Shown here: positions 3,591 to 30,664 of the stretch, piece by piece
Layout of the letters: each line of letters opens with the position of its first letter
How positions within the stretch are numbered: position 1 is the stretch's first letter
Assembly: GCA_964408085.1 (NCBI GenBank)
Contig: CAYOYB010000003.1
Span: 99,314-131,313 of the forward strand
Direction of reading: 5' to 3'
Source of the DNA: an uncultured Muribaculaceae bacterium
GTDB taxonomy: Bacteria; Bacillota_I; Bacilli_A; RF39; UBA660
DNA: 32,000 nt
Notes under the pieces: model-generated
Told to the model about the DNA's origin: nothing
Database searches by the model: none
The model's input: only the letters and a program-made list of their open reading frames with translations
Translations under genes and position numbers: made by a program

Positions 3591-4832
3591 ATGAATTTTA
3601 CTGGTAGACCTAAACCATCAACCTTTTTTATAGGGGTTTTACTAGCTATTGTTGTATTGTTTTTAAAATTAAAAAATGATTTCTTAAAAAAACCGATAGA
3701 AGAACAATCTAAAGAACCAGAGATAGTTTTAAGTAATAATGTTATTAGTACTGAAGATGTTATTTTATATACTAAAAATAATAATGAATTTATCGAGAGT
3801 GGGAAAGTTTTTAAAGATGTTAATTTAACATTGGATGGTAAAGATGATAAATATTATAAAGTAATTGGCCTTGATAAAGATTATTATGTTGCAGGTACAG
3901 GTTTAAAAAATGCTGAACCAATTACATATGATACACGATATAAAAATTATATTGTTTTTAATTCAAATATTGTAATTAATGATACATTAGATTTATATGA
4001 TGAAAATAATAATCTAACTTTTAGTTTAAATGGGGATTTTAGTTTACCAATTTATATAAAAGATGATGAGCGTTATGGTGTTGAATTCGCTGATAGAATT
4101 TTATATGTAAAAGCTGATAGTGGTAAAACAATCGAAAATCATAATACTGATGCTGTAAATACAAAAGGAATTGGAACTTTAAATTATCACTTTTTCTATG
4201 ATGATAGTATTGCCGAAGAACGAAGCGATTGTAATCAAGAAATATGTGCTTCAAAAACACAGTTTAAGGAACATTTAGACTATATTAAAAATAATAATTT
4301 TTTTACACCAACAATGAAAGAATTAGAAATGTATATTGATGGTAAAATTCAATTACCTAAAAGTGTTGTTATTACGATTGATGATGGTTGGCGTGTTGAT
4401 TTAGGAATTCAAATGTTAGAAGAGTACGAATTAAATGCTACATTATTTGTAATAACAAGCTGGTATGATCCACAAAGTTTTAAAAGTCCTTATGTTGAAA
4501 TCCATTCTCATAGTGATAGTATGCATGATGGAGGTGTTTGCCCAACTGGACAAGGTGGTGGAATTCAATGTCTACCTAAAGAAACAATTTTAAATGACTT
4601 AAAAACTAGTAGTGATAAAATTGGTGGTTCAACTGTTTTCTGTTATCCTTTTTATGAATATAATGATTATTCTATCTCAGTATTACAAGAAGCAGGATTT
4701 ACTTTAGCCTTTGCTGGTGAAAGTAGTCGTAGCGATAATTTAATTAAAGTTGGAAGTAATAAATATAAATTACCAAGATTTGTTGTTGTAGATTATACAA
4801 CAATGACAGATTTTGCAAATTATTTAGGATAA
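3591..4832 (+). CDS. Polysaccharide deacetylase (NodB homology domain) with N-terminal membrane anchor
   Basis: 413 aa. It has an N-terminal TM helix and NodB motifs VVITIDDGW and HSHSDSMH. A GGGAGG SD and a TGtTATAAT extended -10 lie upstream. Confidence 0.8.
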   Translation: MNFTGRPKPSTFFIGVLLAIVVLFLKLKNDFLKKPIEEQSKEPEIVLSNNVISTEDVILYTKNNNEFIESGKVFKDVNLTLDGKDDKYYKVIGLDKDYYVAGTGLKNAEPITYDTRYKNYIVFNSNIVINDTLDLYDENNNLTFSLNGDFSLPIYIKDDERYGVEFADRILYVKADSGKTIENHNTDAVNTKGIGTLNYHFFYDDSIAEERSDCNQEICASKTQFKEHLDYIKNNNFFTPTMKELEMYIDGKIQLPKSVVITIDDGWRVDLGIQMLEEYELNATLFVITSWYDPQSFKSPYVEIHSHSDSMHDGGVCPTGQGGGIQCLPKETILNDLKTSSDKIGGSTVFCYPFYEYNDYSISVLQEAGFTLAFAGESSRSDNLIKVGSNKYKLPRFVVVDYTTMTDFANYLG

Positions 4833-5788: not shown

Positions 5789-6865
5789 TTAATAAACTCT
5801 TAAAACATCACTACCATTTATGATACTAGTAGAATATAAAAACAAAATATCTTGATTATTTAACTCTATCTTATCCATTAAATAATTTAGATTACCATAT
5901 CTTAAATCAATTAAGGTAATTTTTTTATAGCCATTAAGCATAAGTGGCGCAAATGAACTAGTGTATGAATCTCTAAAAATAATTAATTCTTTTCCATCTT
6001 CTATATTATTATTAATTATTTCTTCATACGCTGTTGCTCCTGATAAAAAAATATCATAAGAATCAACTGTTCCAAATTTTAAATAATCATAAATTTTATC
6101 GTATTCGCTTTGAATATTATAAACAGTTGCTTTATCAATAATGTCATTATGAAGGATATTTAAACTTTCTCCTTCTTTTTTTATTAAAAGCTGTCCATAG
6201 TAAGTCCCATAAAATGGATGATATTCTTCTATTCTATAATTATCATCAACATAAAAATTCATTATTGTAGATAATTTTTGGATTGCTTTATTAATTTTAT
6301 CTTGTTTTAAGTGATGATCAGTATAATAGTAACTATTTAAATCAATTGTATCAGTGATATCAATATAAGTTATTTCTTTATTAATATTGTCCATATTTTT
6401 AAATAAAGAATTATAATCAAATTTCTTATATTTAGAACTATCTAAATAATAATTTTTCTCTGGAATAATTGAATAATAAACATTCATATCTTTTAAGTAG
6501 TTATCATATATATAATTAATTTTTTCTGTAAATTTATTTATTTGTTTTTCATCATATATATTTTCATATTTAAAATAATGATTATTATAATAAAATAAAT
6601 TATTAACATCTGTTTTTCCTAGTAAGAACTCTATATCTATTTTTAATTTACGGAAATCATTCCTAAAAATAAAATGGTCAGCAATATATCCATCTAACTC
6701 AGCTGTACTTTCTTTATTTAGTAAACTATTTAAAGTAATATTAGGGAGTACTGCTAATTTACGTCTTTCATAATAAGAAATTTCTTCTTTTTTAGAAAAA
6801 ATATTTAAAAGCATAATACTAAAAATAATCAGCATAAAACTTATAACTAATAATTTTTCTTTCAT
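5789..6865 (-). CDS. DHHW-family protein (accessory partner of MBOAT O-acyltransferases)
   Basis: 358 aa with an N-terminal TM anchor and the family motif YYTDHHL. It lies immediately downstream of the MBOAT gene (9-nt gap) and has an AGGTGA SD. Confidence 0.7.
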   Translation of the reverse strand: MKEKLLVISFMLIIFSIMLLNIFSKKEEISYYERRKLAVLPNITLNSLLNKESTAELDGYIADHFIFRNDFRKLKIDIEFLLGKTDVNNLFYYNNHYFKYENIYDEKQINKFTEKINYIYDNYLKDMNVYYSIIPEKNYYLDSSKYKKFDYNSLFKNMDNINKEITYIDITDTIDLNSYYYTDHHLKQDKINKAIQKLSTIMNFYVDDNYRIEEYHPFYGTYYGQLLIKKEGESLNILHNDIIDKATVYNIQSEYDKIYDYLKFGTVDSYDIFLSGATAYEEIINNNIEDGKELIIFRDSYTSSFAPLMLNGYKKITLIDLRYGNLNYLMDKIELNNQDILFLYSTSIINGSDVLRVY

Positions 6866-6874
6866 AAAATCACC

Positions 6875-8239
6875 TTAAAATCTAAAATATATAAATGGAT
6901 TAAATGTTGAATCTACTAAATAAGCTGTTGAGATTAGTAGTAGTCCAATATAAATAATTGGTTCTAAAAAGGTTAGTGTTTTTAACTTTTTTTCTTTAAT
7001 GTATTTAATAATAGATGTTGCACAAATAAGGCTAATAATTAAGATTATTGCGTAACTTTTTAGATAATATAATGTATTAAAATTTATAAATGGTAAATTA
7101 GAAGCACCAAACATCGATTTAAAAAATAAACCTAAATTATTAATATCAGTAATATTAAATATAACAAAACTAATGATTATTAAAATTAGACTATAAAGAT
7201 GCGATAATATTTTGTGATTTTCTAAAAATTTTTTTAAACATAATTTTTCAATAATTAGAATAATTCCAAAATATAATCCCCACAAAATAAAATTCCAACT
7301 TGCACCATGCCATAAACCAGTTAATGCCCAAACAACTAAGATATTGCGAATTAATTTAAATTTTGATACACGATTTCCTCCTAATGGTATATAAATATAA
7401 TCTTTAAACCATCTAGACAATGATATATGCCAACGTCGCCAAAAATCTGTAATTGATTTAGCCATTAAAGGATAGTCAAAGTTTTCCAAGAAGTTAAAAT
7501 TAAACATTTTACCTAATCCTATAGCCATATCTGAATAGCCTGAAAAATCAAAATAAATTTGTATAGTAAAAGAAAGCGCTAATAACCAATATAAAATAAC
7601 AGATTTATCACTCATATCAGTTAAAATATTGATTAAAAGTCCTATGTTATTGGCAATAATAACTTTTTTAGATAAACCTATTATAAATCTTTTTATGCCT
7701 AAATATAAATTAGAAAAATTTAGTTTTCGATTATTAATATCCTCTTTGATTTCAGAAAATCTAACAATAGGTCCAGCTACTAACTGAGCAAAAAAGGTTA
7801 TATAAAGTAAATAATCTAATAAGCTGTTTGCTTTTTCTTTATAGTTTTTATAAACATCAACTAAATAACTTATATTTTGGAATGTAAAAAAACTAATTCC
7901 AATTGGCATAATAAGATTTTTAATAAACAAATTTGTATTAAAAAAGACATTTATATTTTGAAATATAAAGTTAGTGTATTTAAAATATAGTAATGGTAGT
8001 AAATTTATAATAATACCAAATACTAATAATTTTTTATTATTGGTTATTTTTTTAGATAATAAATAGTTTAAAATAGAACTGATTAATAAAATTAAAATGT
8101 ATTTACCTTCTCCATAAAAGTAAAATAATAAACTAAAAAGAATTAAAATTATACTTTTAAAGCGATTAGGTGTTACAAAATAAATTAAAAATAGTATTGG
8201 CAAAAAAAAGTATATAAATGTTAAACTAGAAAAAACCAT
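6875..8239 (-). CDS. MBOAT family O-acyltransferase (AlgI/DltB-like)
   Basis: 454 aa, polytopic. It carries the conserved MBOAT block FWRRWHISLSRWFKDYIYIPLGGNR and GLWHGASWNF, which includes the catalytic His. Confidence 0.9.
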   Translation of the reverse strand: MVFSSLTFIYFFLPILFLIYFVTPNRFKSIILILFSLLFYFYGEGKYILILLISSILNYLLSKKITNNKKLLVFGIIINLLPLLYFKYTNFIFQNINVFFNTNLFIKNLIMPIGISFFTFQNISYLVDVYKNYKEKANSLLDYLLYITFFAQLVAGPIVRFSEIKEDINNRKLNFSNLYLGIKRFIIGLSKKVIIANNIGLLINILTDMSDKSVILYWLLALSFTIQIYFDFSGYSDMAIGLGKMFNFNFLENFDYPLMAKSITDFWRRWHISLSRWFKDYIYIPLGGNRVSKFKLIRNILVVWALTGLWHGASWNFILWGLYFGIILIIEKLCLKKFLENHKILSHLYSLILIIISFVIFNITDINNLGLFFKSMFGASNLPFINFNTLYYLKSYAIILIISLICATSIIKYIKEKKLKTLTFLEPIIYIGLLLISTAYLVDSTFNPFIYFRF

Positions 8240-9179: not shown

Positions 9180-9312
9180 TTGCTTTTTAAAAGTTTTCAA
9201 ATAACATAAAAATTTTTATTTTAACTAATCTTTTATATTGAATAATTATTTTCTTAGACTAAATTAACCATATAAACTTAAAACTATGATATAATTTATT
9301 TAGGTGGTAAAC

Positions 9313-10110
9313 TTGAATATATATAAAACATTAAATGATATAACTAAGTATATAGATGAACATTTAGAAGAAAAAATTGACTATACAATTTTAGCAAAAA
9401 TGATGGGTATAAATGTCTATACTATGCAAAGAATATTTTCTTTAATAACTGGTATATCAGTAGCTGAATATATAAGAAAAAGGCGATTATCAAATGCTGG
9501 CTTTGATCTATATTCAACTAAGGCAAAAGTTATAGATATTGCGATTAAATATCAATATGATAGTACTGAATCATTTTCACGAGCTTTTAAAACATTCCAT
9601 GGTATTAATCCAAGTTTAGTAAATAAGTTTTCTAAACTTAAAAATTATCCTAGAATTATTTTAAATGAAGAAGTAAATATTACTAGTGAATTAGAATATG
9701 AAATTATCGAACTTGAACAAAAAGAATTATATGGTATTGGCATAAAGACTAATAATGAAAATATTGGAACTGATGCCCCAAATTTTTTTATGAATTGTAA
9801 GCTTAATTATGAAGAAAAGTTTGGAAAAATAAAATATGGTATGATTGTTTATGGGGATGATATAAGAGAACAATGTAGTGCATATTATATTTTATATGAT
9901 AAAAAGATAGAAGGTTTTGAAAAAATAATTATACCAGCTAGTAAATGGTTAGTATTTAGGATTAACTCTAATGATGCTAAAGATATTCAGGAAATGTCTA
10001 ATAAATTTTATTTTGAATTTTTGCCGTCTTGTAAATATAATCTAAGAGAAATCCCTGAACTAGAATATTATCATGATGATGTAACTGATTTTTTAGTACC
10101 AATTTATTAA
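9313..10110 (+). CDS. AraC-family transcriptional regulator with C-terminal GyrI-like effector-binding domain
   Basis: The N-terminal half has a double HTH (ILAKMMGINVYTMQRIFS..., SFSRAFKTFHGINPS). The C-terminal roughly 150 aa look like a GyrI/SOUL-like fold. I prefer the TTG at 9313 (AGGTGG 5 nt upstream) to the track GTG at 9304. A TGaTATAAT promoter lies at 9287-9295. Confidence 0.75.
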   Translation: MNIYKTLNDITKYIDEHLEEKIDYTILAKMMGINVYTMQRIFSLITGISVAEYIRKRRLSNAGFDLYSTKAKVIDIAIKYQYDSTESFSRAFKTFHGINPSLVNKFSKLKNYPRIILNEEVNITSELEYEIIELEQKELYGIGIKTNNENIGTDAPNFFMNCKLNYEEKFGKIKYGMIVYGDDIREQCSAYYILYDKKIEGFEKIIIPASKWLVFRINSNDAKDIQEMSNKFYFEFLPSCKYNLREIPELEYYHDDVTDFLVPIY

Positions 10111-10183: not shown

Positions 10184-11113
10184 ATGAAAAATGATATATT
10201 AAATTTTTATTTGCAAACTAGCATTTACACTAATTATTATCCATTTGCTGATTATTATAGGAGTTTACCAGATAATATTGAAGAATTATCAAAATTATTA
10301 TATCATCAGGTAATTCACCGAACTGAATTAATTAGAAGTTATTTAAATAGTCCTAGTAAATATGATAATACATTTGAAATTAACAAAATTAAAGAACAAT
10401 ACCCATGGTATAAAAATAGGTGTGATGACGATATCTTACTAACAGCCCCAGCTATTACAGCTGAGTTATTTCGCCAAGATCCTCGTGGTTTTATAATGGG
10501 AAGGCAAATAAAAGATAGAGTGGTTATTACTTGTAGATATGTCGCTGTTTTACTTGCATCTATTTTAAAGGCTAAAGGCATTCCTGCACGTTGTCGTAGT
10601 GGGTATGCTGATTATTTTCTAAAAAAACGTGGCAAAATATTTTATGATCATTGGATTGTTCAATATTATAATGCTAAGGAAAAAAGATGGGTTAATGTTG
10701 ATCCTGATAATGACTATAAAGTATCATTTAATCAATATGATTTTCCTAATAAAGAATTTCAGTGGATTGCTAAAGTTTGGCTAGATGTTAGAAAAGGGCA
10801 TGATGATTATAAAAGATATATTCATGGTAGTTCCTATAATGGTTTAAATAATTTAGCGTATGCTTTATTTTTTGACTTTCATTCTTTAATGAATGATGAG
10901 ATATCCTATTTATTTTTTCCAACCATGTTTGATAAAAAAGATGAATTTAATAATTTAACAGACGAAGAATTAAGTAGACTTGATAATCTGGCAATGTTAA
11001 TGTTAGATCCTGATAAAAATTTTGATGAGCTTAGATATCTATTTAGAAATGATAAATGGCTGCGTATTATCAATACACCATTATTAAGTGATCAAGACCA
11101 TTTAGAAATATAA
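10184..11113 (+). CDS. Transglutaminase-like (papain-fold Cys-His-Asp) domain protein
   Basis: 309 aa. The core motif arrangement is CRYVAVLLASILKAKGIPAR (Cys), then DHWIVQYY (His), then RWVNVDPD (Asp). An AGGGAGG SD lies upstream. Confidence 0.65.
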   Translation: MKNDILNFYLQTSIYTNYYPFADYYRSLPDNIEELSKLLYHQVIHRTELIRSYLNSPSKYDNTFEINKIKEQYPWYKNRCDDDILLTAPAITAELFRQDPRGFIMGRQIKDRVVITCRYVAVLLASILKAKGIPARCRSGYADYFLKKRGKIFYDHWIVQYYNAKEKRWVNVDPDNDYKVSFNQYDFPNKEFQWIAKVWLDVRKGHDDYKRYIHGSSYNGLNNLAYALFFDFHSLMNDEISYLFFPTMFDKKDEFNNLTDEELSRLDNLAMLMLDPDKNFDELRYLFRNDKWLRIINTPLLSDQDHLEI

Positions 11114-11121
11114 TTCAAGCT

Positions 11122-11153
11122 GACAAATTTGGTAATATAAAAGTCAATTTTTT
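11122..11153 (+). repeat. 33-bp repeat, copy 2
   Basis: GAcAAATTTGGTAATATAAAAGTCAaTTTTTT. It starts 70 nt upstream of the ATG at 11192, the same distance as copy 1. Confidence 0.7.
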
Positions 11154-11191
11154 ATTGTCTTTTTTTGTTATACTTTTTTAAGGTGATTTTT

Positions 11192-13036
11192 ATGCATTAT
11201 TGGTTGGAAATTTATCTTACTAAAAATGATACATCAAAGGAAGACTGGTTAGGATTAATTAAAACAATTTCTAATTATAATAGTAATTTTAGAAAGTGGA
11301 AGATTATTATCAAAATTGAAGATAATAAAATTAGATATTTTATTAAATCGCGATGTAACTTACCACCTACCATTAATAATTTAAGTTCCTTTTTATTCAA
11401 AAATATTGAAGAATTTAATATTCCAAGAGAATATTTATCATTACCTTTTTTATCAAAACCAGAAAGCAATGTTATTGATATTACGAATTATTGTAGTATT
11501 AAAAATAAAGGTAATTTAGAATATTTAGAAATAACCTTCCAAAAGTTATATGATGATAAAATTAAAACTAAAACAACTTTTTATTTAAATAAAAATGGAG
11601 ATATAAAAAAATATAGAACGTTTTTCACTTTACCAACTAATATTTTAGCAATTAATTTTTCACTTAATAAAAGATATTTTTTTAAAAGCGCACCTAAATA
11701 TTTAGATATAAATAAAATATTACATTTACTTGATAGTGAGCAAAAAGGAGCTATTTTAAAAGTAGATACCTTTCCATATTTACAGGGGAATTTTTATTTA
11801 AAACAAAATACATATAATTTTAATAAACATTCCATTATTATTGGTTCAAGTGGTAGTGGTAAATCAAAATTTCTTAGTTCACTTATAAAAAATATTAGTA
11901 GTAATTTTAAACAAAACTATAAAGTTGTGGTTATTGATCCCCATGCTGATTTAGAAAATGATATTGGTGGACTTGGAAAAACAATCGATTTTAAAAATAA
12001 TTTAGATAGTATTGATCCTTTTATTAAAGATAGTTCTAATATTGTCTCGACAACAGAATTATTATTAGAGCTTTTTAAATCGTTAATTTCTGATCAATAT
12101 AATTCAAAATTAGAAAGAGTTTTAAGACATTCTATTTATCTATTATTAGTAAATAATTCTTTTAATTTTAGTAATTTACGTAAATTAATTCTAGATTTAG
12201 AATATCGAAATTCATTGATCAAAAAACTAAAATTAAACTTACCTATAAGTGTTATTGACTTTTTTTTATCAGATTTTAGTAATTTAAAGACAGGTTCTTA
12301 TAATGAAGCTATATCCCCTATTATTGCTTTTATAGATGAAATGGAAATGATCCCTGTTTTTAATGGGCAAAGCGATTTACCAGATTTAAAACACACTATT
12401 AAAGAGAATTTTTTAACATTGTTTTCTCTTGATAGAACAAAATTAGGTGATAAGGTAACAAAGACTATTGCTGGTTTAATAATGCAACAATTACTTACTA
12501 TAATTCAAAGTCGTGAGATAAATGAACATATAATTTTTGTAATTGATGAAGTAGCAGTTATTGAAAACCCTATTCTTTCACGATTTTTATCTGAAGCTAG
12601 AAAATATAACTTATCATTAATATTAGCAGGGCAATTTTTTAGTCAAATATCTGATAGTTTAAAGAGTTCAATATTCGCTAATGTTATTAATTATTATATA
12701 TTTAGAGTTTCTAAATTAGATGCCAATTTGTTAGTCGATAGTTTTAACATGAAAATACCATTAGATGATACAAGAGATAGAAAAATAAAACTATTAACAG
12801 AATTAAGTACTAGAGAATGTATAGTTAGAGTTGATTGTAATGGGATATTACTACCTGCTTTTAAAGCTAGTACTTTAGATTATGAAAGTCTGCCTAGAAT
12901 AAAATGTGAAAATATAAATAACAGTATTGTTAATAGCAATACGAAAATAAAGAAATGTAATTTTAAAATAGATAATAATGTTAATCTAAAAGATATTTTA
13001 ATATTAAGTTCTTCTAGTAGAAAGGTTGTGAAATAG
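11192..13036 (+). CDS. HerA/FtsK-superfamily (DUF87-like) P-loop NTPase with an N-terminal domain of about 220 aa and unknown function
   Basis: Motifs present: Walker A IIIGSSGSGKSKF, the HerA-type VVVIDPHADL block, Walker B IIFVIDEVAV, and the family's conserved SEARKYNLSLILAGQFFSQI block. No TM segments. I prefer the ATG at 11192 (AAGGTGA 5 nt upstream) to the track TTG at 11165. Confidence 0.75.
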   Translation: MHYWLEIYLTKNDTSKEDWLGLIKTISNYNSNFRKWKIIIKIEDNKIRYFIKSRCNLPPTINNLSSFLFKNIEEFNIPREYLSLPFLSKPESNVIDITNYCSIKNKGNLEYLEITFQKLYDDKIKTKTTFYLNKNGDIKKYRTFFTLPTNILAINFSLNKRYFFKSAPKYLDINKILHLLDSEQKGAILKVDTFPYLQGNFYLKQNTYNFNKHSIIIGSSGSGKSKFLSSLIKNISSNFKQNYKVVVIDPHADLENDIGGLGKTIDFKNNLDSIDPFIKDSSNIVSTTELLLELFKSLISDQYNSKLERVLRHSIYLLLVNNSFNFSNLRKLILDLEYRNSLIKKLKLNLPISVIDFFLSDFSNLKTGSYNEAISPIIAFIDEMEMIPVFNGQSDLPDLKHTIKENFLTLFSLDRTKLGDKVTKTIAGLIMQQLLTIIQSREINEHIIFVIDEVAVIENPILSRFLSEARKYNLSLILAGQFFSQISDSLKSSIFANVINYYIFRVSKLDANLLVDSFNMKIPLDDTRDRKIKLLTELSTRECIVRVDCNGILLPAFKASTLDYESLPRIKCENINNSIVNSNTKIKKCNFKIDNNVNLKDILILSSSSRKVVK

Positions 13037-13735
13037 ATGAATGATAATATTGCTTTAGATATAGTTAATAAAATTTTTAACAATGTTTTTGAAACTGACA
13101 ATAAATTTTCTTTGAAAGATTTACTAGATAAATTTGCCTTTGATATTAAATTACCGAATAAGGTAAATGATTCTACAACTAATGAAATAACATGGGCTGA
13201 TTCAATAAATAGTGGTAAATTTATCACTAATCAAAATATGCAGAAAAGAGATGAATCTATAGGGTGGATGTTACCCAAAAAAGATATCAATAATCTGCAA
13301 GAAATTATTGATTTATGGAATAGTATTAATTTAACTACAACTGAAAGATTTTTTAACTCTGTCAATGTCGCAAAAAGTGATACAATTTATGGTTGTCAAA
13401 ATGTCTATAGATGTAGTAATTGTAGTAACTCTAAAAATATAATTTACTGTGATTCTTGTGGTAGTTCAGAATATCTTCTTGCTTCACAAAGATCAGTAAA
13501 TTGTAATTTTTGTATACGATGTGATGATTCTAAAGATTGTAGTAATAGTTATAGTGTTATTTATTCAAATAAAGTCAGTAATTCTTTATTTATTCAAGAT
13601 TGCTTTAATTTATATGAATGTATGTTTTGTTCACATATTGCTTCAAAAAAGTTTTGTATTGCCAATATGCAATTTGAAGAAGAAGAATATTATGAAATAA
13701 AAAAGCTAATTATCGATTGGATATTAGCCTCTTAA
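13037..13735 (+). CDS. Cys-repeat protein of unknown function (13 Cys in the C-terminal ~90 aa)
   Basis: The ATG directly follows the TAG of the NTPase gene (TAGATG). The N-terminal 118 aa have no Cys. After that the pattern C-x5-C-x2-C-x8-C occurs twice, flanking C-x2-C...C-x2-C-x2-C-x5-C. There is almost no His, so it is not HNH-like. Confidence 0.6.
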   Translation: MNDNIALDIVNKIFNNVFETDNKFSLKDLLDKFAFDIKLPNKVNDSTTNEITWADSINSGKFITNQNMQKRDESIGWMLPKKDINNLQEIIDLWNSINLTTTERFFNSVNVAKSDTIYGCQNVYRCSNCSNSKNIIYCDSCGSSEYLLASQRSVNCNFCIRCDDSKDCSNSYSVIYSNKVSNSLFIQDCFNLYECMFCSHIASKKFCIANMQFEEEEYYEIKKLIIDWILAS

Positions 13736-15582: not shown

Positions 15583-16521
15583 CTAATCTTCTAAAAAATT
15601 CATTACTAAATCAATTAGTATTTCTTTTTCTTTAGGATTGGATTGCGCGATTAATAATGTAATTGCTACTAATGCATTATTATCTATAACTTGTTTGTTA
15701 TTTTTATATAGAATGCCATAATATTGTAAGAAATATATAAATAATGTTGCTGCAATTCTTTTATTACCATCGATGAAAACATGGTTTTTTATAATCAAAT
15801 ACAAAAAATTAGCTGCTTTTTCTTCTAAAGAAGGATAAACATCTTTACCATCAAATGATTGATAAATAGTACCTATTATACCTTTTAGTCCATTATTTCT
15901 TTCCAAAGCAAATAAATTACTTTCGCTATTAAATTTTAAATCATTAATTATTTTAAGACAATCTTCATATTCAATTACATTATTATTTATAGTTCCTTTT
16001 GGTTTAGAAATTTTTTTATGGTCATAATCATCAAGTAATCCTAATGCATTTGAGTAACCATTTATAACTCTTATTATTCCTTTTACATCACTATCATGTA
16101 ACTCTGAATCAATTCGACTAGCAATATCTATTAATTTGACTGTTTTTTCTAAATATTCTAATCTTTGTTCATTAATAGAATAACCTTTTATTAAATGTTC
16201 TTTAAGTATCTTATTAGCCCATTTTCTAAAAATAATTCCATTTTTAGATTTAACACGATATCCTACACTAATAATCATATCTAGATTATAATGTTGAACA
16301 TTATATATTTTTCCATCCTTTGCAGTTGTTGCAAAATTTGCAATAACTGTCTCAGTACTTAGTTCTTCTTCTAAAATATTTTTTATATGCCTTGATATAA
16401 CAGATTTATCTCTATCAAATAATTTTGACATTTGCTCTAGAGATAACCAAACAGTTTCATCTTTCATATTTACTTCTAATTTAATACTTTGATTTTCAAA
16501 TAATATTATTTCATTTTTCAT
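15583..16521 (-). CDS. RhuM-like N-terminal domain fused to a Doc-type Fic domain
   Basis: The N-terminus (IKLEVNMKDETVWLSLEQMSKLFDRDKSVISRHIKNI...NLDMIISVGYRVKS) resembles the RhuM virulence-protein family. The C-terminus carries HVFIDGNKRIAATL, which matches the Doc variant of the Fic motif, HxFx(D/N)(A/G)NKR. Confidence 0.7.
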   Translation of the reverse strand: MKNEIILFENQSIKLEVNMKDETVWLSLEQMSKLFDRDKSVISRHIKNILEEELSTETVIANFATTAKDGKIYNVQHYNLDMIISVGYRVKSKNGIIFRKWANKILKEHLIKGYSINEQRLEYLEKTVKLIDIASRIDSELHDSDVKGIIRVINGYSNALGLLDDYDHKKISKPKGTINNNVIEYEDCLKIINDLKFNSESNLFALERNNGLKGIIGTIYQSFDGKDVYPSLEEKAANFLYLIIKNHVFIDGNKRIAATLFIYFLQYYGILYKNNKQVIDNNALVAITLLIAQSNPKEKEILIDLVMNFLED

Positions 16522-18976: not shown

Positions 18977-20203
18977 CTAAAAAATATTCAAAAAAGATTT
19001 TGCTTTATTAATATATGGTTTTCGTTCTAAAATTAATTCTTTCGAATCTATAGGAACATGTATATCTTTTTCATTAATAAATATATAATTAATATCTTTT
19101 CTTGATGAATTTCCAAATAATTCAATTGGTAAATAATAATTCATTATAATCCATAATACATCTGAACAATTTTTTGGAAAAAAACCTTCACCATCTGTTA
19201 TAACAATCTTGTTGTCAGCATCCTTTGAAAAACTTTCGGCCATAGCTGTAAAATCAGTAAATCCTCTACCTTTTATATGCAAATTATCAATATCGCTATC
19301 ATTTCTTATCTCATTCCAACCATAAAATTCGATATCACAAAATCCCACCTTTATTTGACTAGCAGATAATATATTTTTGCATTCTCTCAAAATTGCTTTT
19401 ATTTTTTGCATACTCATAGAACCACTACTATCGATAATTATTTCGCTTTCAGCATATGATATATCTTGTTTTTCTTCTTTTTTTATTATTCCATCAATTT
19501 CTACTTCATAAAATGCAGTGGTTACTTCATCTGGAGTAACTATATTTGCTCTTAATAATTCTTTCCAATAAATAAGAGGAGCTGCTCTTTCAACACTAAC
19601 ACTAGGAAATTCGATCCCTAATGACATGTTTCCAAATTGAGCCTGTTTTTTTAGTTCTTCTTGAAAATCCCCTAACAATTCATTTCTTAAATGGCTATTT
19701 TCACCCATTAAATCTTGTAAATCTTGATTATATACTTCATTTACCCACTCTTCTAAATCAGATATTTCCATGTGATAAGTATTTGCATTCATCCATTCTT
19801 TAATTTGCTTTAATTGAGGTAAATATTTCATATATAATTCTTCTGTAGAATAATCTAGTGCATCTGGAATATCTACAAGGCCTTCTGGCATTGTTAGTCC
19901 ATCCTTTACTAATAACTGATTAATAATAGCATCTTCAACATAGTTCAATAAATCTCTATCTCTTCCAACATTTCTAAATAAATGACTTAATACTATGTGA
20001 AATATTTCGTGAGCAACAATAAATTCTTTTTCATCATCAAAATAATCATCAATAAATTCTTGCTTATAAAAAATACATCTTCCATTAGTAAATGCTGAAG
20101 CAGGAACTGACTCATTCGTAAATTTAAATTGCAAATTAACAATAACATTACCAAACAAAGGATATCTTATTAAAAGATTTCTAATAATATTATTTATTTC
20201 CAT
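18977..20203 (-). CDS. HExxH metallopeptidase-like domain fused to a vWA domain (DUF2201_N/DUF2201-type architecture)
   Basis: The N-terminal domain has AHEIFHIVLSH (HExxH). The C-terminal vWA domain has an intact MIDAS, IIIDSSGSMS ... VITDGEG. The start overlaps the AAA+ gene's stop by 14 nt. Confidence 0.75.
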   Translation of the reverse strand: MEINNIIRNLLIRYPLFGNVIVNLQFKFTNESVPASAFTNGRCIFYKQEFIDDYFDDEKEFIVAHEIFHIVLSHLFRNVGRDRDLLNYVEDAIINQLLVKDGLTMPEGLVDIPDALDYSTEELYMKYLPQLKQIKEWMNANTYHMEISDLEEWVNEVYNQDLQDLMGENSHLRNELLGDFQEELKKQAQFGNMSLGIEFPSVSVERAAPLIYWKELLRANIVTPDEVTTAFYEVEIDGIIKKEEKQDISYAESEIIIDSSGSMSMQKIKAILRECKNILSASQIKVGFCDIEFYGWNEIRNDSDIDNLHIKGRGFTDFTAMAESFSKDADNKIVITDGEGFFPKNCSDVLWIIMNYYLPIELFGNSSRKDINYIFINEKDIHVPIDSKELILERKPYINKAKSFLNIF

Positions 20204-22046
20204 TTGATTCTAGCCTTTTAATAAATGGTTTATTAGATTGACTATATAATTTCATAATCCTTTGTTCATTATCTTTAGACCATTCATAATCAAAAACTGC
20301 TAAAAATTCTTTACCTAATCCACTAACAAACTCTCTTACTTTATCCACATTATCATCATCGACTGTACTTAAACACATTGTTGTATACCATCTTAAAGAA
20401 GGGTCAAATGGTACATCTTCTATGTTATATCTATTATTTAAGACATCATCAATAGTTATTAAATTCATTTTGCTGAATTTTATAAAATCTCGAGTAAGAC
20501 TTTCCCCAATAAATGCACGAAGTACATTGGGGTTATTACTTTGATATAATGCCTTTGAAGCTAAAGCCCATTTTCTTGGATCAGCATTAGGATTTACTCC
20601 ATCATATTGTGTTCTTAACACATTATCACCATTAACTCTTATATAATCTACAATTGCAGGATGTATTCCATCAATTTTTTGTTGACCTTTATAAAGTAAT
20701 TGCTTGCCATCTTTTTCTCTTTTTAATGCCCATTTTAGCCACTCTTCAGAATCAGTATTTATATAAACATGAGCAAATCTTCCAAACAATGGTTCACTTA
20801 ATGAATTTGCTGATCTTGATTCACTTGCTTCATTCCCTGCAGCGCATACAACAGCATTTTCTGGTAATTTCAATCTATATCCGCTGTTTGTTAGTGTTTT
20901 ATTTAATGTTACTTCAAAAGCAACTTTTTGTATGTCATTCTTTGCATTAGTTAATTCTTCTAAAAATAAGATATGCAATTTATCTGGTTCATCTGCACAT
21001 TTCTTACATAAACTTTTATACCAATAAGGTTCATATAAAAATAGTTCTTTTGAATTAAAATCTTTAGCTATAATACCTGTAAAGCCATCTGAACTTGTAC
21101 AACCAAAATCAATTAATTCTAAATTTCTATCTAGTGTAAGCATTCTTTCTGTTTTCCCAACACCAGTTTTACCATGTAAAAATACCGCAATGTTGCTATT
21201 TATACATATCTCAATTATTTCTTCTTCTGTAAGTGGAGTAAAATTAAACCCATAACGATTATTATCTTCTTTTTCTTCATCGCTAAATAATAATGCTGGT
21301 GCAGTATGTTCTAATTCATCATTGATGCTTTTTAAGAATTCATTATTTAAATATCTATTTAAATCACTATCTTTAAATTCTCTACCTGCTATATCAAAGT
21401 TTGCACCAAATAATACAATTGAGGAATATACTAATTTTGCTTTTTCATCTATAGTTAATGGAATACTTTCAACTTTTAAATAAACATCAGTATCTGCTTT
21501 ACTTATTGTTCCATCGCTCAAAACTTTTGATTCAACTTTATTTTTCTTTCTTATAAATCTTATACCAAATGCTTCATATTCGCAATATTCTTTTTCATCT
21601 ACAAAATGTGTTCTTCCTGTTGTAATAATTAGTTTACTTTTATTATCAAATAATTTGTCTATTATTTCTCCAACTCTTCCACCTATAATAGTTAGTGGGT
21701 ATTCAATATTTAAATTTTGTAATTCATTTAAATCAAAGTCTTCAATATCATCAAATGAAAAAGCTATTCTAACCCCATGTTTAAAATTAGTTTTAGTAGT
21801 TTGAGATAATACTCCACTATTATTAATATAAATCATATTATTAGTAGTAGCTTTATTCTTTTTATTAATAATATATTTTCCATCAAGCCAATATCCTCCA
21901 AAACCATTTGATTGATCATATGAAACCCCCGTTAAACGAGCCAAATCAGAGCAATAACATTCAACTCCTGATTGTTTTATAGTCTCTAGCATATTTTCAT
22001 CTTTAATATGTTCTTCTTTTAAAATTCCTATCCTCTTAATTTTCAT
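20190..22046 (-). CDS. MoxR/AAA_5-like AAA+ ATPase with an unassigned N-terminal extension of about 290 aa
   Basis: Motifs present: Walker A FLHGKTGVGKTERM, Walker B HILFLEELT, sensor-1-like VVCAAGNE, and LSEPLFGRFAHVYI (Arg-finger region). The first ~290 aa have no motif I can assign. A GAAGGGGGA SD lies upstream. Confidence 0.75.
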   Translation of the reverse strand: MKIKRIGILKEEHIKDENMLETIKQSGVECYCSDLARLTGVSYDQSNGFGGYWLDGKYIINKKNKATTNNMIYINNSGVLSQTTKTNFKHGVRIAFSFDDIEDFDLNELQNLNIEYPLTIIGGRVGEIIDKLFDNKSKLIITTGRTHFVDEKEYCEYEAFGIRFIRKKNKVESKVLSDGTISKADTDVYLKVESIPLTIDEKAKLVYSSIVLFGANFDIAGREFKDSDLNRYLNNEFLKSINDELEHTAPALLFSDEEKEDNNRYGFNFTPLTEEEIIEICINSNIAVFLHGKTGVGKTERMLTLDRNLELIDFGCTSSDGFTGIIAKDFNSKELFLYEPYWYKSLCKKCADEPDKLHILFLEELTNAKNDIQKVAFEVTLNKTLTNSGYRLKLPENAVVCAAGNEASESRSANSLSEPLFGRFAHVYINTDSEEWLKWALKREKDGKQLLYKGQQKIDGIHPAIVDYIRVNGDNVLRTQYDGVNPNADPRKWALASKALYQSNNPNVLRAFIGESLTRDFIKFSKMNLITIDDVLNNRYNIEDVPFDPSLRWYTTMCLSTVDDDNVDKVREFVSGLGKEFLAVFDYEWSKDNEQRIMKLYSQSNKPFIKRLESNGNK

Positions 22047-25401: not shown

Positions 25402-25694
25402 TATTATATTAAAAATTTAAAAATTAGTCAATACTAATATTAAAATGATAAACTTTACATTTATAATTATTATCTTTCAATTATATTACTCATTTATATT
25501 ATATTTATTTAATACGAACGATTGACATTTTTAACAATGAATGACTACATTCAAATAAAAAAAGAAGAAAAATTAATTTACAAATTATTAACTCCAAAAT
25601 TATGTTTATATAGAATATAATATTTTTTTTAGAATTAAATATAATTTACTAACTACTTAAATATAATAACAATTAAAATATGTGGGGTTTTATA

Positions 25695-26765
25695 ATGAAA
25701 AATAAAAAAGTATATATAATTTTATCTATTTTTATAATTTTACTTATTATTAGTATATTTATATATGTTAAACATAATAAGAAAAAAAGAAAAATTACTA
25801 ATGAATATCCAATTATAAGTCTTAAAGGTAATAATATTATGGATATAAATGTTTCTGAAAATTTTGAAGAACCTGGATATTCTGCTTATGATGAAATTGA
25901 TGGTGATATAACTGATAAGGTAATGATTAAAAATAATGTTGATTTCAACACACCTGGTACCTATGAAATTTTATATAAAGTAACAAATTCTAAAGGTAAT
26001 AGTGTGGAAATAAAAAGATTTATAACAATTAACCAAGCAATTAATATTGAATATAAAGAAATCTATGATAGTATTGATAATACTGTTCATGGTTGGGGAA
26101 CTAATAATAAACAAGATGGGCAAAGACCTAATACAGATTTGTCAAATGAGGAATTAAAAAAATATAATGCTTATGCAATGGGAAATGATGAAAAAGTTAT
26201 ATATCTTACCTTTGATGAAGGTAATCTAGAATCTTATTTACCAGAAATTGTTGATATCTTAAATAAAAATGATATTAAAGCAACTTTCTTTTTGTGTCGA
26301 GGCTTTATAAAGAATAATCCAGAACTCATGATAGAAATGATAGAAAAGGGACACTCAGTTGGTAACCATACTGCTAACCATATTTCTATGCCTACACTAG
26401 CTAATTCTGAAAATTTTGAAAAATATTTAAAAGAATTATCATTAACTGAAGAAGCATTTAAAGAAATTACTGGTAAATCTATGGACCGAATTTATCGCGA
26501 ACCTAGAGGAGAATATAGTTTACGCAGTTTAAGTATTATAAAAGATTTAGGATATAGTACCTATTTTTGGAGTGCAGCCTATAAGGATTGGGATGATAAA
26601 CTAACTAAGGAACAAGCACTTCAAGAAATGATTAATCATGTACATAATGGTGCAATATACCTACTTCACCCAAATAGTAAAGGAAATTATTTAGCATTAG
26701 ATGATTTTATTAAACAAATGAAGGAACAAGGCTATACTTTTGATTTGGTTAGAAATATTAAATAA
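25695..26765 (+). CDS. PdaA-like polysaccharide (MurNAc) deacetylase with N-terminal TM anchor and Ig-like (DUF5011-type) domain
   Basis: The NodB domain blocks KVIYLTFDEG, GHSVGNHTANH, IYREPRGEY, FWSAAYKDW, GAIYLLHP and QGYTF closely parallel B. subtilis PdaA as I remember it. PGYSAYDEIDGDITDKV is typical of DUF5011. I prefer the ATG at 25695 to the one at 25680. Confidence 0.75.
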   Translation: MKNKKVYIILSIFIILLIISIFIYVKHNKKKRKITNEYPIISLKGNNIMDINVSENFEEPGYSAYDEIDGDITDKVMIKNNVDFNTPGTYEILYKVTNSKGNSVEIKRFITINQAINIEYKEIYDSIDNTVHGWGTNNKQDGQRPNTDLSNEELKKYNAYAMGNDEKVIYLTFDEGNLESYLPEIVDILNKNDIKATFFLCRGFIKNNPELMIEMIEKGHSVGNHTANHISMPTLANSENFEKYLKELSLTEEAFKEITGKSMDRIYREPRGEYSLRSLSIIKDLGYSTYFWSAAYKDWDDKLTKEQALQEMINHVHNGAIYLLHPNSKGNYLALDDFIKQMKEQGYTFDLVRNIK

Positions 26766-28126: not shown

Positions 28127-28285
28127 ATTTGGTTAAAAATATTAAATAAAATTTAAAGTTAATAATAAGATTATTATTAGCTTTTTTTTAAATAATAATA
28201 ACCATTTTTTATATTATCCATAAAATATTTTAAGAGGGGGAAAAAATATGTATGATTTTGCAGTTGTTGTAGATGCTGGTCATGG
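28127..28285. repeat. Junction duplication, copy 2 (upstream region and 5' end of the intact amidase gene)
   Basis: It matches 26743-26895. It even retains a relic of the deacetylase's last codons (TTGGTTAAAAATATTAAATAA) although no deacetylase gene precedes it here. Confidence 0.85.
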
Positions 28286-29468
28286 AGGTTCAGATCCTGG
28301 TGCAGTTTCTGGAAATACACGTGAAAAAGATTTAACATTACAAATATCAAACTATATGTATGAACGTTTTAAAGAATTAGGAGTACCAGTTGCAATCACT
28401 AGACCAACTGATGAAACAGTTAGTCCAACAGAACGTGTAAACCGTATTTTAAATGCTTTTGGTGATAAGAAGAATGTTATTGTTATCTCAAATCATATTA
28501 ATTCTAATACAACAGGAACAGCAGAGGGTGCAGAAGTAGTATATGCACTTAGAAATGAGGCTACTTTAGCGCAAAATGTATTAAATGCTCTTGGCGATGC
28601 AGGTCAAAAGAAAAGAATGATTTATCAACGAAGACTTCCAAGTGATAGTACAAAAGATTATTATTTTATTCATAGAAATACTGGTCAAACTGAACCTTTA
28701 CTTGTCGAATATGGATTTATTAATAATGCTCAGGATTTGAATAGAATAAAAAATAATTATCGAAAATATGTAGATGCTGTTGTAGATGCTATTATTGCAA
28801 CAGAAATGGGAGGGTCTATACCACCAACTGGTTCAAACACTTATGTAGTAAAAAGTGGCGACACTTTATATAAAATTGCTCAAGCTTTCAATACTACAGT
28901 TAGTAATCTAAAAAGACTAAATAATTTAACTAATGATAATTTGTCAGTTGGGCAGATACTATTAGTACCATCACAAAATGCGACTGGAAATAACAACACA
29001 TATATCGTAAGAAGTGGTGATAGCTTATGGAGTATCGCCAATAGATATAATACTACAGTAGATGAAATAAAAAGATTAAATGGTTTAACTAGTAATACGT
29101 TATCCATTGGGCAAGTTCTAACTATTCCAAATGCTATTGATACAAATGGTGGCGTTTCTGATGTTGGAACATATGTAGTAAAAAGTGGTGATACTTTGTG
29201 GAATATTGCTAATAGATTTGATACTAATATTAATGAAATTAAAAGATTAAATAATCTATCTAGTGATATATTAAATATAGGTCAAGTTCTAAAAATTCCT
29301 AATGTCACAGGAAGTTTACCAAGTTTTACTTATACAGTAAAAAGTGGCGATAGCTTATGGAGTATTGCTAATAGATATAATACTACAGTAAATTCTATTA
29401 AACAGCTAAATAATTTAACTAGTAATCTTCTTTCTATTGGGCAAGTTTTGAAAATTCCAACAGCATAA
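28248..29468 (+). CDS. N-acetylmuramoyl-L-alanine amidase (Amidase_3) with four C-terminal LysM repeats
   Basis: The N-terminal VVVDAGHGGSDPGAV ... EGAEVVY ... LVEYGFINN matches the Amidase_3 zinc-ligand layout. Four repeats of the form Y.V..GD.L..IA..... ...I..LN.L.S..L.IGQ.L.IP follow. No signal peptide. Confidence 0.9.
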   Translation: MYDFAVVVDAGHGGSDPGAVSGNTREKDLTLQISNYMYERFKELGVPVAITRPTDETVSPTERVNRILNAFGDKKNVIVISNHINSNTTGTAEGAEVVYALRNEATLAQNVLNALGDAGQKKRMIYQRRLPSDSTKDYYFIHRNTGQTEPLLVEYGFINNAQDLNRIKNNYRKYVDAVVDAIIATEMGGSIPPTGSNTYVVKSGDTLYKIAQAFNTTVSNLKRLNNLTNDNLSVGQILLVPSQNATGNNNTYIVRSGDSLWSIANRYNTTVDEIKRLNGLTSNTLSIGQVLTIPNAIDTNGGVSDVGTYVVKSGDTLWNIANRFDTNINEIKRLNNLSSDILNIGQVLKIPNVTGSLPSFTYTVKSGDSLWSIANRYNTTVNSIKQLNNLTSNLLSIGQVLKIPTA

Positions 29469-30573: not shown

Positions 30574-30664
30574 TGGCGGAGTAGGCGAGATTTGAACTCG
30601 CGCGCCAGTTGCCCGACCTACACCCTTAGCAGGGGCGCCTCTTCAGCCTCTTGAGTACTACTCC
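30574..30664 (-). tRNA. tRNA-Ser (anticodon GCT), CCA encoded
   Basis: I folded the reverse complement by hand. Acceptor stem is GGAGTAG/CTACTCC and D stem is CTC/GAG. The anticodon stem is CGCCC/GGGTG with loop CT-GCT-AA. The long variable arm is GTCGG-GCAA-CTGGC, the T arm is GCGAG-TTCAAAT-CTCGC, and the discriminator is G followed by CCA. It forms a local GC-rich island in AT-rich DNA. Confidence 0.9.

Follow-up and report, generated by a model that had tools for sequence, protein, structure and literature searches.

What does a cell do with a HerA-like ATPase whose stop codon is followed directly by the start codon of a small, cysteine-rich protein? The question is raised by a 32,000-nucleotide (nt) stretch of DNA, here called the window, from an uncultured bacterium filed under Muribaculaceae and placed by GTDB in the RF39 lineage of Bacilli_A (UBA660); it covers positions 99,314 to 131,313 of contig CAYOYB010000003.1 (assembly GCA_964408085.1). 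An initial annotation, made from the letters of the DNA alone, pointed to an uncharacterised two-gene module, and its coordinates and protein lengths agree exactly with the map of open reading frames (ORFs):

11192 to 13036, + strand: ATPase gene, 614 amino acids (aa), with an ATG start and a TAG stop at 13034 to 13036
13037 to 13735, + strand: partner gene, 232 aa, its ATG directly abutting the TAG of the ATPase gene

The answer that we favor, with a probability of roughly 0.4, is that the two genes encode an obligate two-subunit, ATP-driven complex with a role in the cell's own physiology. We prefer this reading to a mobile anti-phage cassette, which we consider possible though less probable. 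The pair joins an FtsK/HerA ATPase to a dedicated partner from a previously undescribed beta-solenoid family, and our literature searches found no description of such a pairing.

Do the two genes belong together? A scan of one genome per species yielded 64 loci, found in metagenome-assembled genomes (MAGs) of uncultured gut Bacilli or “Tenericutes” (including Candidatus Ventrenecus, Faecenecus, and Onthousia) and in Saccharibacteria/Patescibacteria. Wherever enough upstream DNA was available (62 loci), the ATPase gene lies immediately 5′ of the partner gene and in the same orientation, and the order is unchanged in all seven further contigs that were looked up. This strict co-occurrence bears out the two-gene module that was first proposed. 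Between the stop codon of the ATPase gene and the ATG of the partner lie −17 to +8 nt in 59 of the 62 loci, mainly as overlaps of 1, 4, or 8 nt. The two proteins also diverge in step: their pairwise identities correlate with r = 0.90 over 1,540 locus pairs, with the partner the slower-evolving of the two (mean pairwise identity 61%, against 48% for the ATPase). Each of two database searches with a partner protein returned about 900–1,060 clusters. The best 120 matches listed per search are proteins of ~230 aa without Pfam domains, and the few that are named by their source are called “hypothetical protein.”

What kind of ATPase is this? All four HerA/DUF87 motifs listed in the initial annotation are present (GSSGSGKSKF at aa 218–227, VVVIDPHADL at 245–254, FVIDEVAV at 449–456, and EARKYNLSLILAGQ at 468–481), and they are invariant or nearly so in an alignment of 24 diverse orthologues. 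The signatures that define the FtsK/HerA superfamily (GSSGSGKSK, IIFVIDE, and EARKYN through Q481) are likewise invariant in these 24 proteins. The conserved elements map as follows:

11843 to 11869, + strand: Walker A motif GSSGSGKSK, aa 218–226, with G218, S220, G221, G223, K224, S225, and K226 invariant in the 24 orthologues
12545 to 12634, + strand: Walker B (D452-E453) through the EARKYNLSLILAGQ block, with invariant columns at E468, R470, K471, and Q481
12977 to 13033, + strand: C-terminal tail NL-x-DIL-x3-SSSRK, with L599 and R610 nearly invariant and S607 invariant in orthologues whose GC content ranges from 24% to 49%

The second of these regions appears to match the Arg-finger/sensor part that FtsK/HerA ATPases typically have. 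The EARKYNLSLILAGQ block presumably recalls the ARAAGIHL(I/V)LATQRPS block of FtsK. The protein consists of an N-terminal domain (aa 1–205), a P-loop core with a helical insert (aa 206–560), a variable linker, extended by ~150 aa in some Saccharibacteria, and the conserved tail, which is a candidate tethered docking peptide. The N-terminal domain had been left without assignment, and it indeed has no family match in a Pfam search; nor is there a HAS-barrel match anywhere in the ATPase at E ≤ 0.1. An AlphaFold2 (AF2) model gives aa 1–150 a mixed alpha/beta fold with a predicted local distance difference test (pLDDT) score of ~70–80, within a whole model that is poor (pLDDT 54) because only sequences of at least 70% identity were supplied.

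The matches of the ATPase to known families are short and scattered over the superfamily. In Pfam, DUF87 (36.7 bits, cut-off 23.2) and TrwB_AAD_bind (30.3 bits, cut-off 20.5) match short stretches around the P-loop, Pox_A32 is also above its cut-off, FtsK_SpoIIIE is just below (21.4 bits vs 24), and TraG-D_C matches weakly. NCBIfam adds a weak match to the VirD4-like CD1115 family (1e-5); its antiphage HerA equivalogs are not matched (NF042944, 29.5 bits vs a cut-off of 850; NF042943, 21.7 vs 800). PDB searches with the ATPase sequence and with the 24-member profile recovered antiphage HerA P-loops only (best 3e-5). Foldseek, run with the AF2 model, returned SIR2-HerA, Nezha HerA, HerA-NurA, DUF4297-HerA, TdpAB, and VirB4 (E from 1e-4 to 5e-2, TM-scores of 0.2–0.3); coming from a poor model, these matches would point to the superfamily only. 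A role as a packaging ATPase was considered and set aside, as the Pox_A32 and terminase PHROG matches are limited to the P-loop and no viral context was found. The ATPase is basic (isoelectric point [pI] 9.3), and hydropathy reveals no transmembrane segment (maximum over 19 residues, 1.34). Judged from its sequence, it is a soluble, divergent P-loop ATPase of the FtsK/HerA superfamily with intact catalytic motifs, not assignable to any sub-family. In one Saccharibacteria genome (L079, 8030 to 10001), the ATPase is present as two ORFs of 270 and 402 aa, 5′ of an intact partner gene, a possible frameshift or pseudogene.

What is the partner? It has an alpha/beta domain (aa 1–100), a beta-solenoid with a hexapeptide register (aa 108–212), and an amphipathic C-terminal helix (aa 215–231). 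It is acidic (family median pI 4.9), although the repeat region has a pI of 7.3, close to neutral, and hydropathy indicates no transmembrane segment. The cysteine count and spacings that first drew attention to the protein are accurate: 13 Cys (120, 126, 129, 138, 141, 156, 159, 162, 168, 189, 195, 198, and 207) lie within 88 residues, accompanied by a single His (H200). Two parts of this region matter for what follows:

13358 to 13672, + strand: repeat region of ~17 hexads with all 13 Cys, S/C standing at position 1 and moving to position 4 after hexad 168
13619 to 13657, + strand: C195-x2-C198-x-H200-x6-C207 motif (ECMFCSH...K-x-F-C-I-A-N-M-Q), from the alignment of both clades

Eleven consecutive hexads begin with S or C, in the pattern S/C-x-N-[VI]-[YF]-x. 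The autocorrelation of C/S peaks at lags of 6, 12, 18, and 24 residues (0.54, 0.59, 0.50, and 0.39), and the lag-6 value was reached in 4 of 10,000 shuffles of the window protein. Together with the abutment or overlap kept at 59 of 62 loci, this means that both the gene pair and the repeat exceed what chance would produce. The AF2 model of the partner (pLDDT 83, predicted template modelling score 0.77) has a strand every 6 residues over aa 109–142 at a pLDDT of at least 90, with lower confidence over aa 150–210. The top Foldseek matches to this model are all left-handed beta-helix (LbH) hexapeptide proteins, none of them significant (best E 0.33 in PDB and 0.5 in BFVD; TM-score ≤ 0.2).

Is the cysteine repeat a metal-binding or disulfide-rich module, as was initially supposed? 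Conservation was assessed with a 64-member alignment across both clades, Bacilli and Saccharibacteria. C120, C126, C129, C141, C156, and C162 are Cys in no more than 14% of the Saccharibacteria orthologues; C120, C126, and C156 are mostly Ser there, and Cys is rare or absent at C129, C141, and C162. For C138 and C159, the share with Cys is 47%–63%. C198 and H200 are invariant, and C195, C207, C189, and C168 are kept in 86%–100% of both clades. Thus, eight of the 13 Cys are lineage-specific, mostly with Ser replacements, and five Cys and one His are conserved, so the multi-zinc or disulfide-rich repeat does not hold. Given the hexad register and the Ser at most of the non-conserved positions, the “Cys repeat” is better described as the small-residue ladder of a beta-solenoid, in which Cys has taken the place of Ser in the Bacilli lineage. 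On the fold check suggested with that annotation, the AF2 model of the partner fits a beta-solenoid register, with no significant fold match. C195, C198, H200, and C207 form the sole candidate metal site common to both clades, so at most one would be conserved, and the motif is degenerate in distant paralogues. Invariant charged residues (D36, D45, E103, R104, D115, K133, R152, R161, and D164) lie on the N-terminal domain and on one face of the solenoid, which suggests a conserved binding or catalytic surface.

The partner has no match in Pfam, NCBIfam, PADLOC, or PDB sequence searches, which agrees with the earlier description of an uncharacterised module. When the 64 family members were compared with Pfam at E ≤ 10, only scattered noise appeared (for example, Zn_ribbon_9 and DUF7228), and the Hexapep, Pentapeptide, and Bactofilin models did not match. 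The resemblance to LbH hexapeptide proteins (GlmU, LpxD, PglD, and gamma-carbonic anhydrase) lies in the 6-residue period and in the modelled strands. It differs in the hexad itself, which is S/C-x-N-[VI]-[YF]-x rather than the LbH pattern [LIV]-[GAED]-x2-[STAV]-x, and the lack of a Hexapep match or a significant structural match leaves the partner outside the LbH proteins. The Tenebrio antifreeze protein is a Cys-ladder beta-helix with intra-coil Cys pairs, which the Ser/Cys spaced six apart in the partner recall. A further difference is that the partner is cytoplasmic; its coils would be 12 or 18 residues long. In two Candidatus Ventrenecus loci (L018 and L023), the first partner ATG is 203 nt 3′ of the homologous start, yet tblastn alignments begin at residue 1. 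Translation of these two genes probably starts at a codon other than ATG.

How far does the partner family extend? An exhaustive search yielded 379 clusters at 50% identity, comprising single-module relatives (24%–35% identity) and tandem two-module proteins of ~525–540 aa. The fused forms suggest that the single-module proteins may act as dimers. The family is expanded at one metagenome locus (L070, contig Ga0210057_1000030, 4147 to 16025), where nine paralogues, single- and double-module, stand in a same-strand tandem array of mostly overlapping ORFs. The array lies 3′ of Tad/archaeal-type T2SSE and T2SSF genes and is followed by a convergent HerA-like ATPase gene, whose product, at 26% ATPase identity, matches the ATPase profile in hmmsearch at 2e-75. 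Two other loci carry four tandem paralogues (L073) and one (L071), neither with an adjacent ATPase. The link between ATPase and partner thus survives at long range, though not throughout the partner superfamily. Cysteine-rich cytoplasmic proteins have been linked to archaeal type IV pilus (T4P) loci (PMC4858521), and the paralogue family may correspond to one of these, arCOG05056. A different architecture of the same repeat module is seen in a distantly related 581-aa protein from the 50%-identity library (P0502), which has a solenoid with the C-x2-C-F-G-C...K-K-Y-C motif twice; pairs of Cys stand at its N-terminus, and its C-terminus is a zinc finger of the treble-clef type (zf_Tbcl_2, 1e-5).

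How is the pair expressed? The DNA around the two start codons has the following elements:

11120 to 11153, + strand: hairpin and T-run ACTGAC-N18-GTCAG-TTTTTT, in a degenerate copy, from an alignment of 13 upstream regions
11166 to 11174, + strand: extended −10-like element TGTTATACT, a TG-n-TATAmT column block kept in the upstream alignment
11180 to 11186, + strand: ribosome-binding site (RBS) of the ATPase gene, AAGGTGA; GAGGTGA is kept 5–9 nt 5′ of the ATG in orthologous loci
13020 to 13025, + strand: RBS of the partner gene, GAAAGG, 11 nt before the ATG and within the last ATPase codons

The Bacilli upstream regions share one order: the ACTGAC-N18-GTCAGTTTTTT hairpin with its T-run, then TG-n-TATAmT, then the RBS GAGGTGA. 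An exact match to the hairpin pattern occurs 5′ of the ATPase start in 30 of 56 loci, mostly ~75 nt from the start codon, against a background of 0.056 per kb. The folding energy reaches −8.1 kcal/mol (z = −2.2) at L013 and −13.7 kcal/mol (z = −4.9) at L007; the copy in the window is weak (−2.9 kcal/mol, with a right arm of GTCAA). The hairpin is likely the intrinsic terminator of the upstream gene, separating that gene from the ATPase operon, and the extended −10-like element is a putative promoter of the two genes. With a conserved control region 3′ of the terminator, the pair would have its own regulatory region, whichever gene precedes it. A generic promoter scan of the window was uninformative in such AT-rich DNA (24% GC; 49 sites vs 44.6 expected). 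A longer ATPase ORF initiated by TTG at 11165 was rejected, as the N-termini of the orthologues give it no support.

What surrounds the pair? Clustering of the flanking ORFs recovered three conserved families only, namely the ATPase (61 loci), the partner (63 loci), and a regulator with an AraC-type helix-turn-helix (HTH) and a GyrI-like domain (38 loci, all Bacilli). Every other family occurs in at most six loci, except for one probably spurious antisense ORF. In the window, two genes precede the pair:

9304 to 10110, + strand: regulator with an AraC-type HTH and a GyrI-like/Cass2 ligand-binding domain (Pfam HTH_18 6e-17, GyrI-like 1e-9, Cass2 2e-9)
10184 to 11113, + strand: transglutaminase-like gene (cytoplasmic transglutaminase core), inserted between the regulator and the ATPase gene

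In the 38 Bacilli loci, a regulator orthologue precedes the pair in the same orientation. It is missing from several other Bacilli loci and occurs in no Saccharibacteria locus; its pairwise identities co-vary with those of the ATPase (r = 0.85). The transglutaminase-like insertion is restricted to the window, L001, and L024, and has a terminator-like hairpin 3′ of the gene. The survey of neighbors covered the one to three nearest genes per locus, 142 genes in total from ~60 loci. These match 132 Pfam families (E ≤ 1e-5), the commonest of which are housekeeping or metabolic (UDG, GNAT, methyltransferases, NUDIX, PheRS, and SAM synthetase), and no integrase, transposase, or restriction family is in the leading list. 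Only a handful match PADLOC at 1e-10, several of them generic. In two Saccharibacteria genomes whose RpoB proteins are 88% identical, the pair sits between fusA and rpsG-rpsL-rpoC-rpoB; elsewhere in Saccharibacteria it is near ftsK, rpsF, ssb, and efp, or near murein genes. IMG/VR, scanned with the alignments of the two families, yielded no relatives of either protein, and INPHARED and PLSDB, searched as DNA and as protein, gave no match but three remote ATPase matches on plasmids, in uninformative contexts. The pair also matches its flanks in composition, with ~24% GC throughout the window. The first view, that the pair opens an accessory island, finds no support here; the pair is a self-contained unit whose flanks vary between genomes and are mostly housekeeping genes, and its fusA-rpsG position is kept in one Saccharibacteria lineage. 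The accessory-island flavor of the window's own flanks is not seen at other loci except L001. The earlier view that context gives no conjugation role stands. The pair is not within conjugation or phage-packaging gene sets, there are no type IV secretion system (T4SS) or relaxase genes in the window, and no conserved neighbor of that kind is found in the 63 loci.

How might the two proteins work? Ring ATPases of the HerA/FtsK type are known to team up with nucleases or NADases, or to serve within machines for secretion and segregation. We propose that the two genes would specify two subunits of one ATP-driven complex: a soluble, catalytically intact FtsK/HerA-superfamily ATPase that presumably assembles as a ring, and an acidic partner with a Ser/Cys-ladder beta-solenoid body, an N-terminal alpha/beta cap, and a C-terminal helix. 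The opposite charges of the two proteins and their solubility were counted in favor of a complex. Both subunits would be co-produced by translational coupling from their own promoter, and, in gut Bacilli, the adjoining AraC/GyrI-type regulator, which would sense a small molecule, may control them. Most likely, the complex would use ATP to handle a nucleic acid or a protein polymer, and the solenoid would act as an adaptor or regulator. The module appears to be old, a chromosomal unit passed on mostly by vertical descent in two lineages with reduced genomes, the gut Bacilli/“Tenericutes” and the Saccharibacteria. Such inheritance argues for a role in the cell's own physiology and against a mobile cassette directed at phages. 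A cellular role is also favored by the housekeeping-type surroundings, by the conserved position and native composition of the pair, by its absence from collections of mobile elements, and by the linkage to a sensor-type regulator.

Several observations weigh against this reading. The best PADLOC match of the ATPase is mad8, which spans the whole core (aa 211–494) at 4.5e-19; its best PHROG match is phrog_5156, a phage family without known function (1.2e-20); and its best Foldseek matches are antiphage HerA proteins. The model behind those matches is poor, and the ring architecture is a prediction. For the partner, the profile, PDB, and fold searches found no substrate, enzymatic domain, or solved homologue. 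The distribution of the pair within Saccharibacteria appears patchy, and the gene table of Southlakia (PMC10633639) contains no obvious orthologous pair, a weak check made by gene length and name only. Finally, a candidate defense gene and, further on, a MoxR/VWA pair lie on the opposite strand 3′ of the ATPase-partner pair in the window:

15583 to 16521, − strand: RhuM-family and Fic/DOC protein (PADLOC candidate defense family PDC-S23, matched end to end, 1e-121)
18977 to 20203, − strand: DUF2201 putative metallopeptidase with a VWA-like domain, overlapping the next gene
20190 to 22046, − strand: AAA_5/MoxR-like ATPase, overlapping the DUF2201 gene

The RhuM/Fic gene stands beyond an ABC exporter on that strand and also adjoins the pair in L001, the closest relative, again on the opposite strand. 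The DUF2201 and AAA_5 genes form a MoxR-VWA type pair 5 kb from the ATPase-partner pair, beyond two unassigned ORFs.

Could the pair instead be a new two-gene anti-phage or anti-plasmid system, with the beta-solenoid as a sensor or effector activated on a HerA hexamer? This is a serious rival because the nearest characterised relatives of the ATPase are defense HerAs and mad8, and because the occurrence of the pair in two unrelated phyla points to one or more ancient transfers; we regard it as possible, if still doubtful. The known HerA two-component systems (NurA-HerA, SIR2-HerA/Nezha, DUF4297-HerA, and TdpAB) are the top Foldseek and PDB-profile matches of the ATPase. They share with it intact Walker A and B motifs and an Arg-finger, solubility, and a tightly coupled layout of an ATPase gene beside a single non-ATPase partner gene, with probable joint action. 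The expansion of the partner family at L070, the weak PHROG matches of both proteins, and the RhuM/Fic and MoxR-VWA genes of the window would also fit defense. The differences begin with the sequence likeness, which extends over only ~50 residues around the P-loop, with no match to a HAS-barrel family. They continue with the partner, a Ser/Cys-ladder beta-solenoid without a nuclease or NADase fold or any protease, TIR, or pore-forming signature. It has no Pfam, NCBIfam, or PDB match that would make it the adjacent NurA nuclease of NurA-HerA, and PADLOC and Pfam identify no adjacent Sir2 or DUF4297 (Cap4-like) effector. The several HerA models that follow mad8 in PADLOC cover the P-loop only. 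MADS, the system to which mad8 (PDLC04140, the best defense profile) belongs, is encoded by eight genes in one operon, which include those for a methyltransferase, a specificity subunit, and a kinase (bioRxiv 10.1101/2023.03.30.534895); these three are not beside the window pair, whose neighbors are the AraC regulator, the transglutaminase-like gene, and the ABC exporter. The surroundings do not look like those of a defense island, since the nearest neighbors sampled at ~60 loci are overwhelmingly housekeeping genes. The scarcity of defense-model matches among them weakens the defense role that the initial annotation implied. So do the lack of relatives on viral contigs, the three remote plasmid matches to the ATPase as the only phage or plasmid records, the conserved chromosomal position in Saccharibacteria, and the long co-inheritance of the pair with the neighboring regulator.

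The remaining alternatives keep the pair within cellular functions of narrower kinds. It is unlikely, in our view, that the ATPase is a soluble coupling-type protein that serves, with the partner as adaptor or chaperone, a type IV secretion or filament machine, such as the essential T4SS of Saccharibacteria, which has no recognisable coupling protein. Like the type IV coupling proteins VirD4, TrwB, and TcpA, the ATPase has a helical insert between Walker A and Walker B, together with the TrwB_AAD_bind, TraG-D_C, and VirD4-like matches given above. Its tail, after a flexible linker, recalls that of TraD, which binds TraM. Unlike them, it has no N-terminal membrane anchor. Secretion or pilus genes are nearby at a few loci, with seven T4SS_pilin genes 7–10 kb upstream at L066 in Saccharibacteria, T2SSE and T2SSF directly 5′ of the L070 array, and a T2SSE gene no more than 6 kb away at L076; however, none is a conserved neighbor, none is near the pair in the window and at most loci, and such genes are numerous enough in small genomes that chance proximity is expected at times. 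The cysteine-rich proteins of archaeal T4P loci (PMC4858521) and the report that the Southlakia T4SS is without coupling and relaxase proteins (PMC10633639) would also fit. Still, the T4CP-like SEML1_0293 of Southlakia, 921 aa long, is a different protein; it is not essential, and a GNAT gene comes next (PMC10633639). As the only T4CP-like gene in the transposon sequencing tables of that study, it was considered as an orthologue and rejected; in those tables, by length and name, an ATPase gene is nowhere followed by one of the right length. Slightly less likely again is a xenobiotic- or antibiotic-response module, in which the GyrI-like regulator would switch on the ATPase and a beta-helical protein that protects a drug target or mimics DNA, by analogy with the pentapeptide-repeat protein MfpA and its NTPase MfpB, and with Qnr. 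The regulator beside 38 Bacilli loci, the overall acidity and beta-solenoid of the partner, and the placement among drug-target genes (fusA and rpsG-rpsL-rpoCB) in two Saccharibacteria speak for this idea. The DNA-mimic part is weakened because the repeat domain is not acidic, and the idea as a whole is at odds with the absence of Pentapeptide and Hexapep matches, with the loci that have no regulator, and with the terminator between regulator and operon. Least probable is that a cysteine-rich metallochaperone is loaded or unloaded by an NTPase, the metal or Fe-S version of the multi-zinc idea. The density of Cys in the window protein, the C-x2-C-x-H-x6-C motif, and weak, non-significant matches to PsaC and Zn-ribbon models would suit it; the eight Cys that are mostly Ser in Saccharibacteria, the distant homologues in which they are almost all Ser, and the limit of one conserved site would not. 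To our knowledge, the NTPases of known metallochaperones are of the G3E/MinD class rather than FtsK/HerA.

What are the implications of a cellular role for this pair? More speculatively, and with a confidence well short of even, we suggest that it may lie at the heart of a cellular machine not recognised before, in which a HerA-like ring motor either acts on Ser/Cys-ladder beta-solenoid proteins of a new class or is gated by them. Such a machine would be common to Saccharibacteria (in the candidate phyla radiation), gut Bacilli, and, in a multi-paralogue form, organisms with Tad/archaeal-type pilus genes. If so, it could assemble or remodel a cytoplasmic solenoid polymer, or carry out a nucleic-acid transaction specific to reduced-genome, host-dependent microbes. 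The carriers are two poorly understood lineages from gut and environment, both with reduced genomes, and genetic tools now exist for Saccharibacteria. Knowledge of what the pair does would allow a sizeable part of microbial dark matter to be annotated and would add either a new type of HerA-based effector or a new cellular motor-adaptor pair.

The window contains further features away from the pair. A single RNA gene was found, and an Rfam scan of the window gave nothing else:

30574 to 30664, − strand: tRNA-Ser (GCT), the sole RNA gene found in the window

Genes for cell-wall modification are also present, namely an MBOAT and DHHW O-acyltransferase pair, two polysaccharide deacetylases, and an Amidase_3 protein with four LysM repeats; their spans are 5789 to 8239 (− strand), 3591 to 4832 (+ strand), 25680 to 26765 (+ strand), and 28248 to 29468 (+ strand). 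These genes indicate that the organism has a peptidoglycan wall, although related MAGs are labelled “Tenericutes.”

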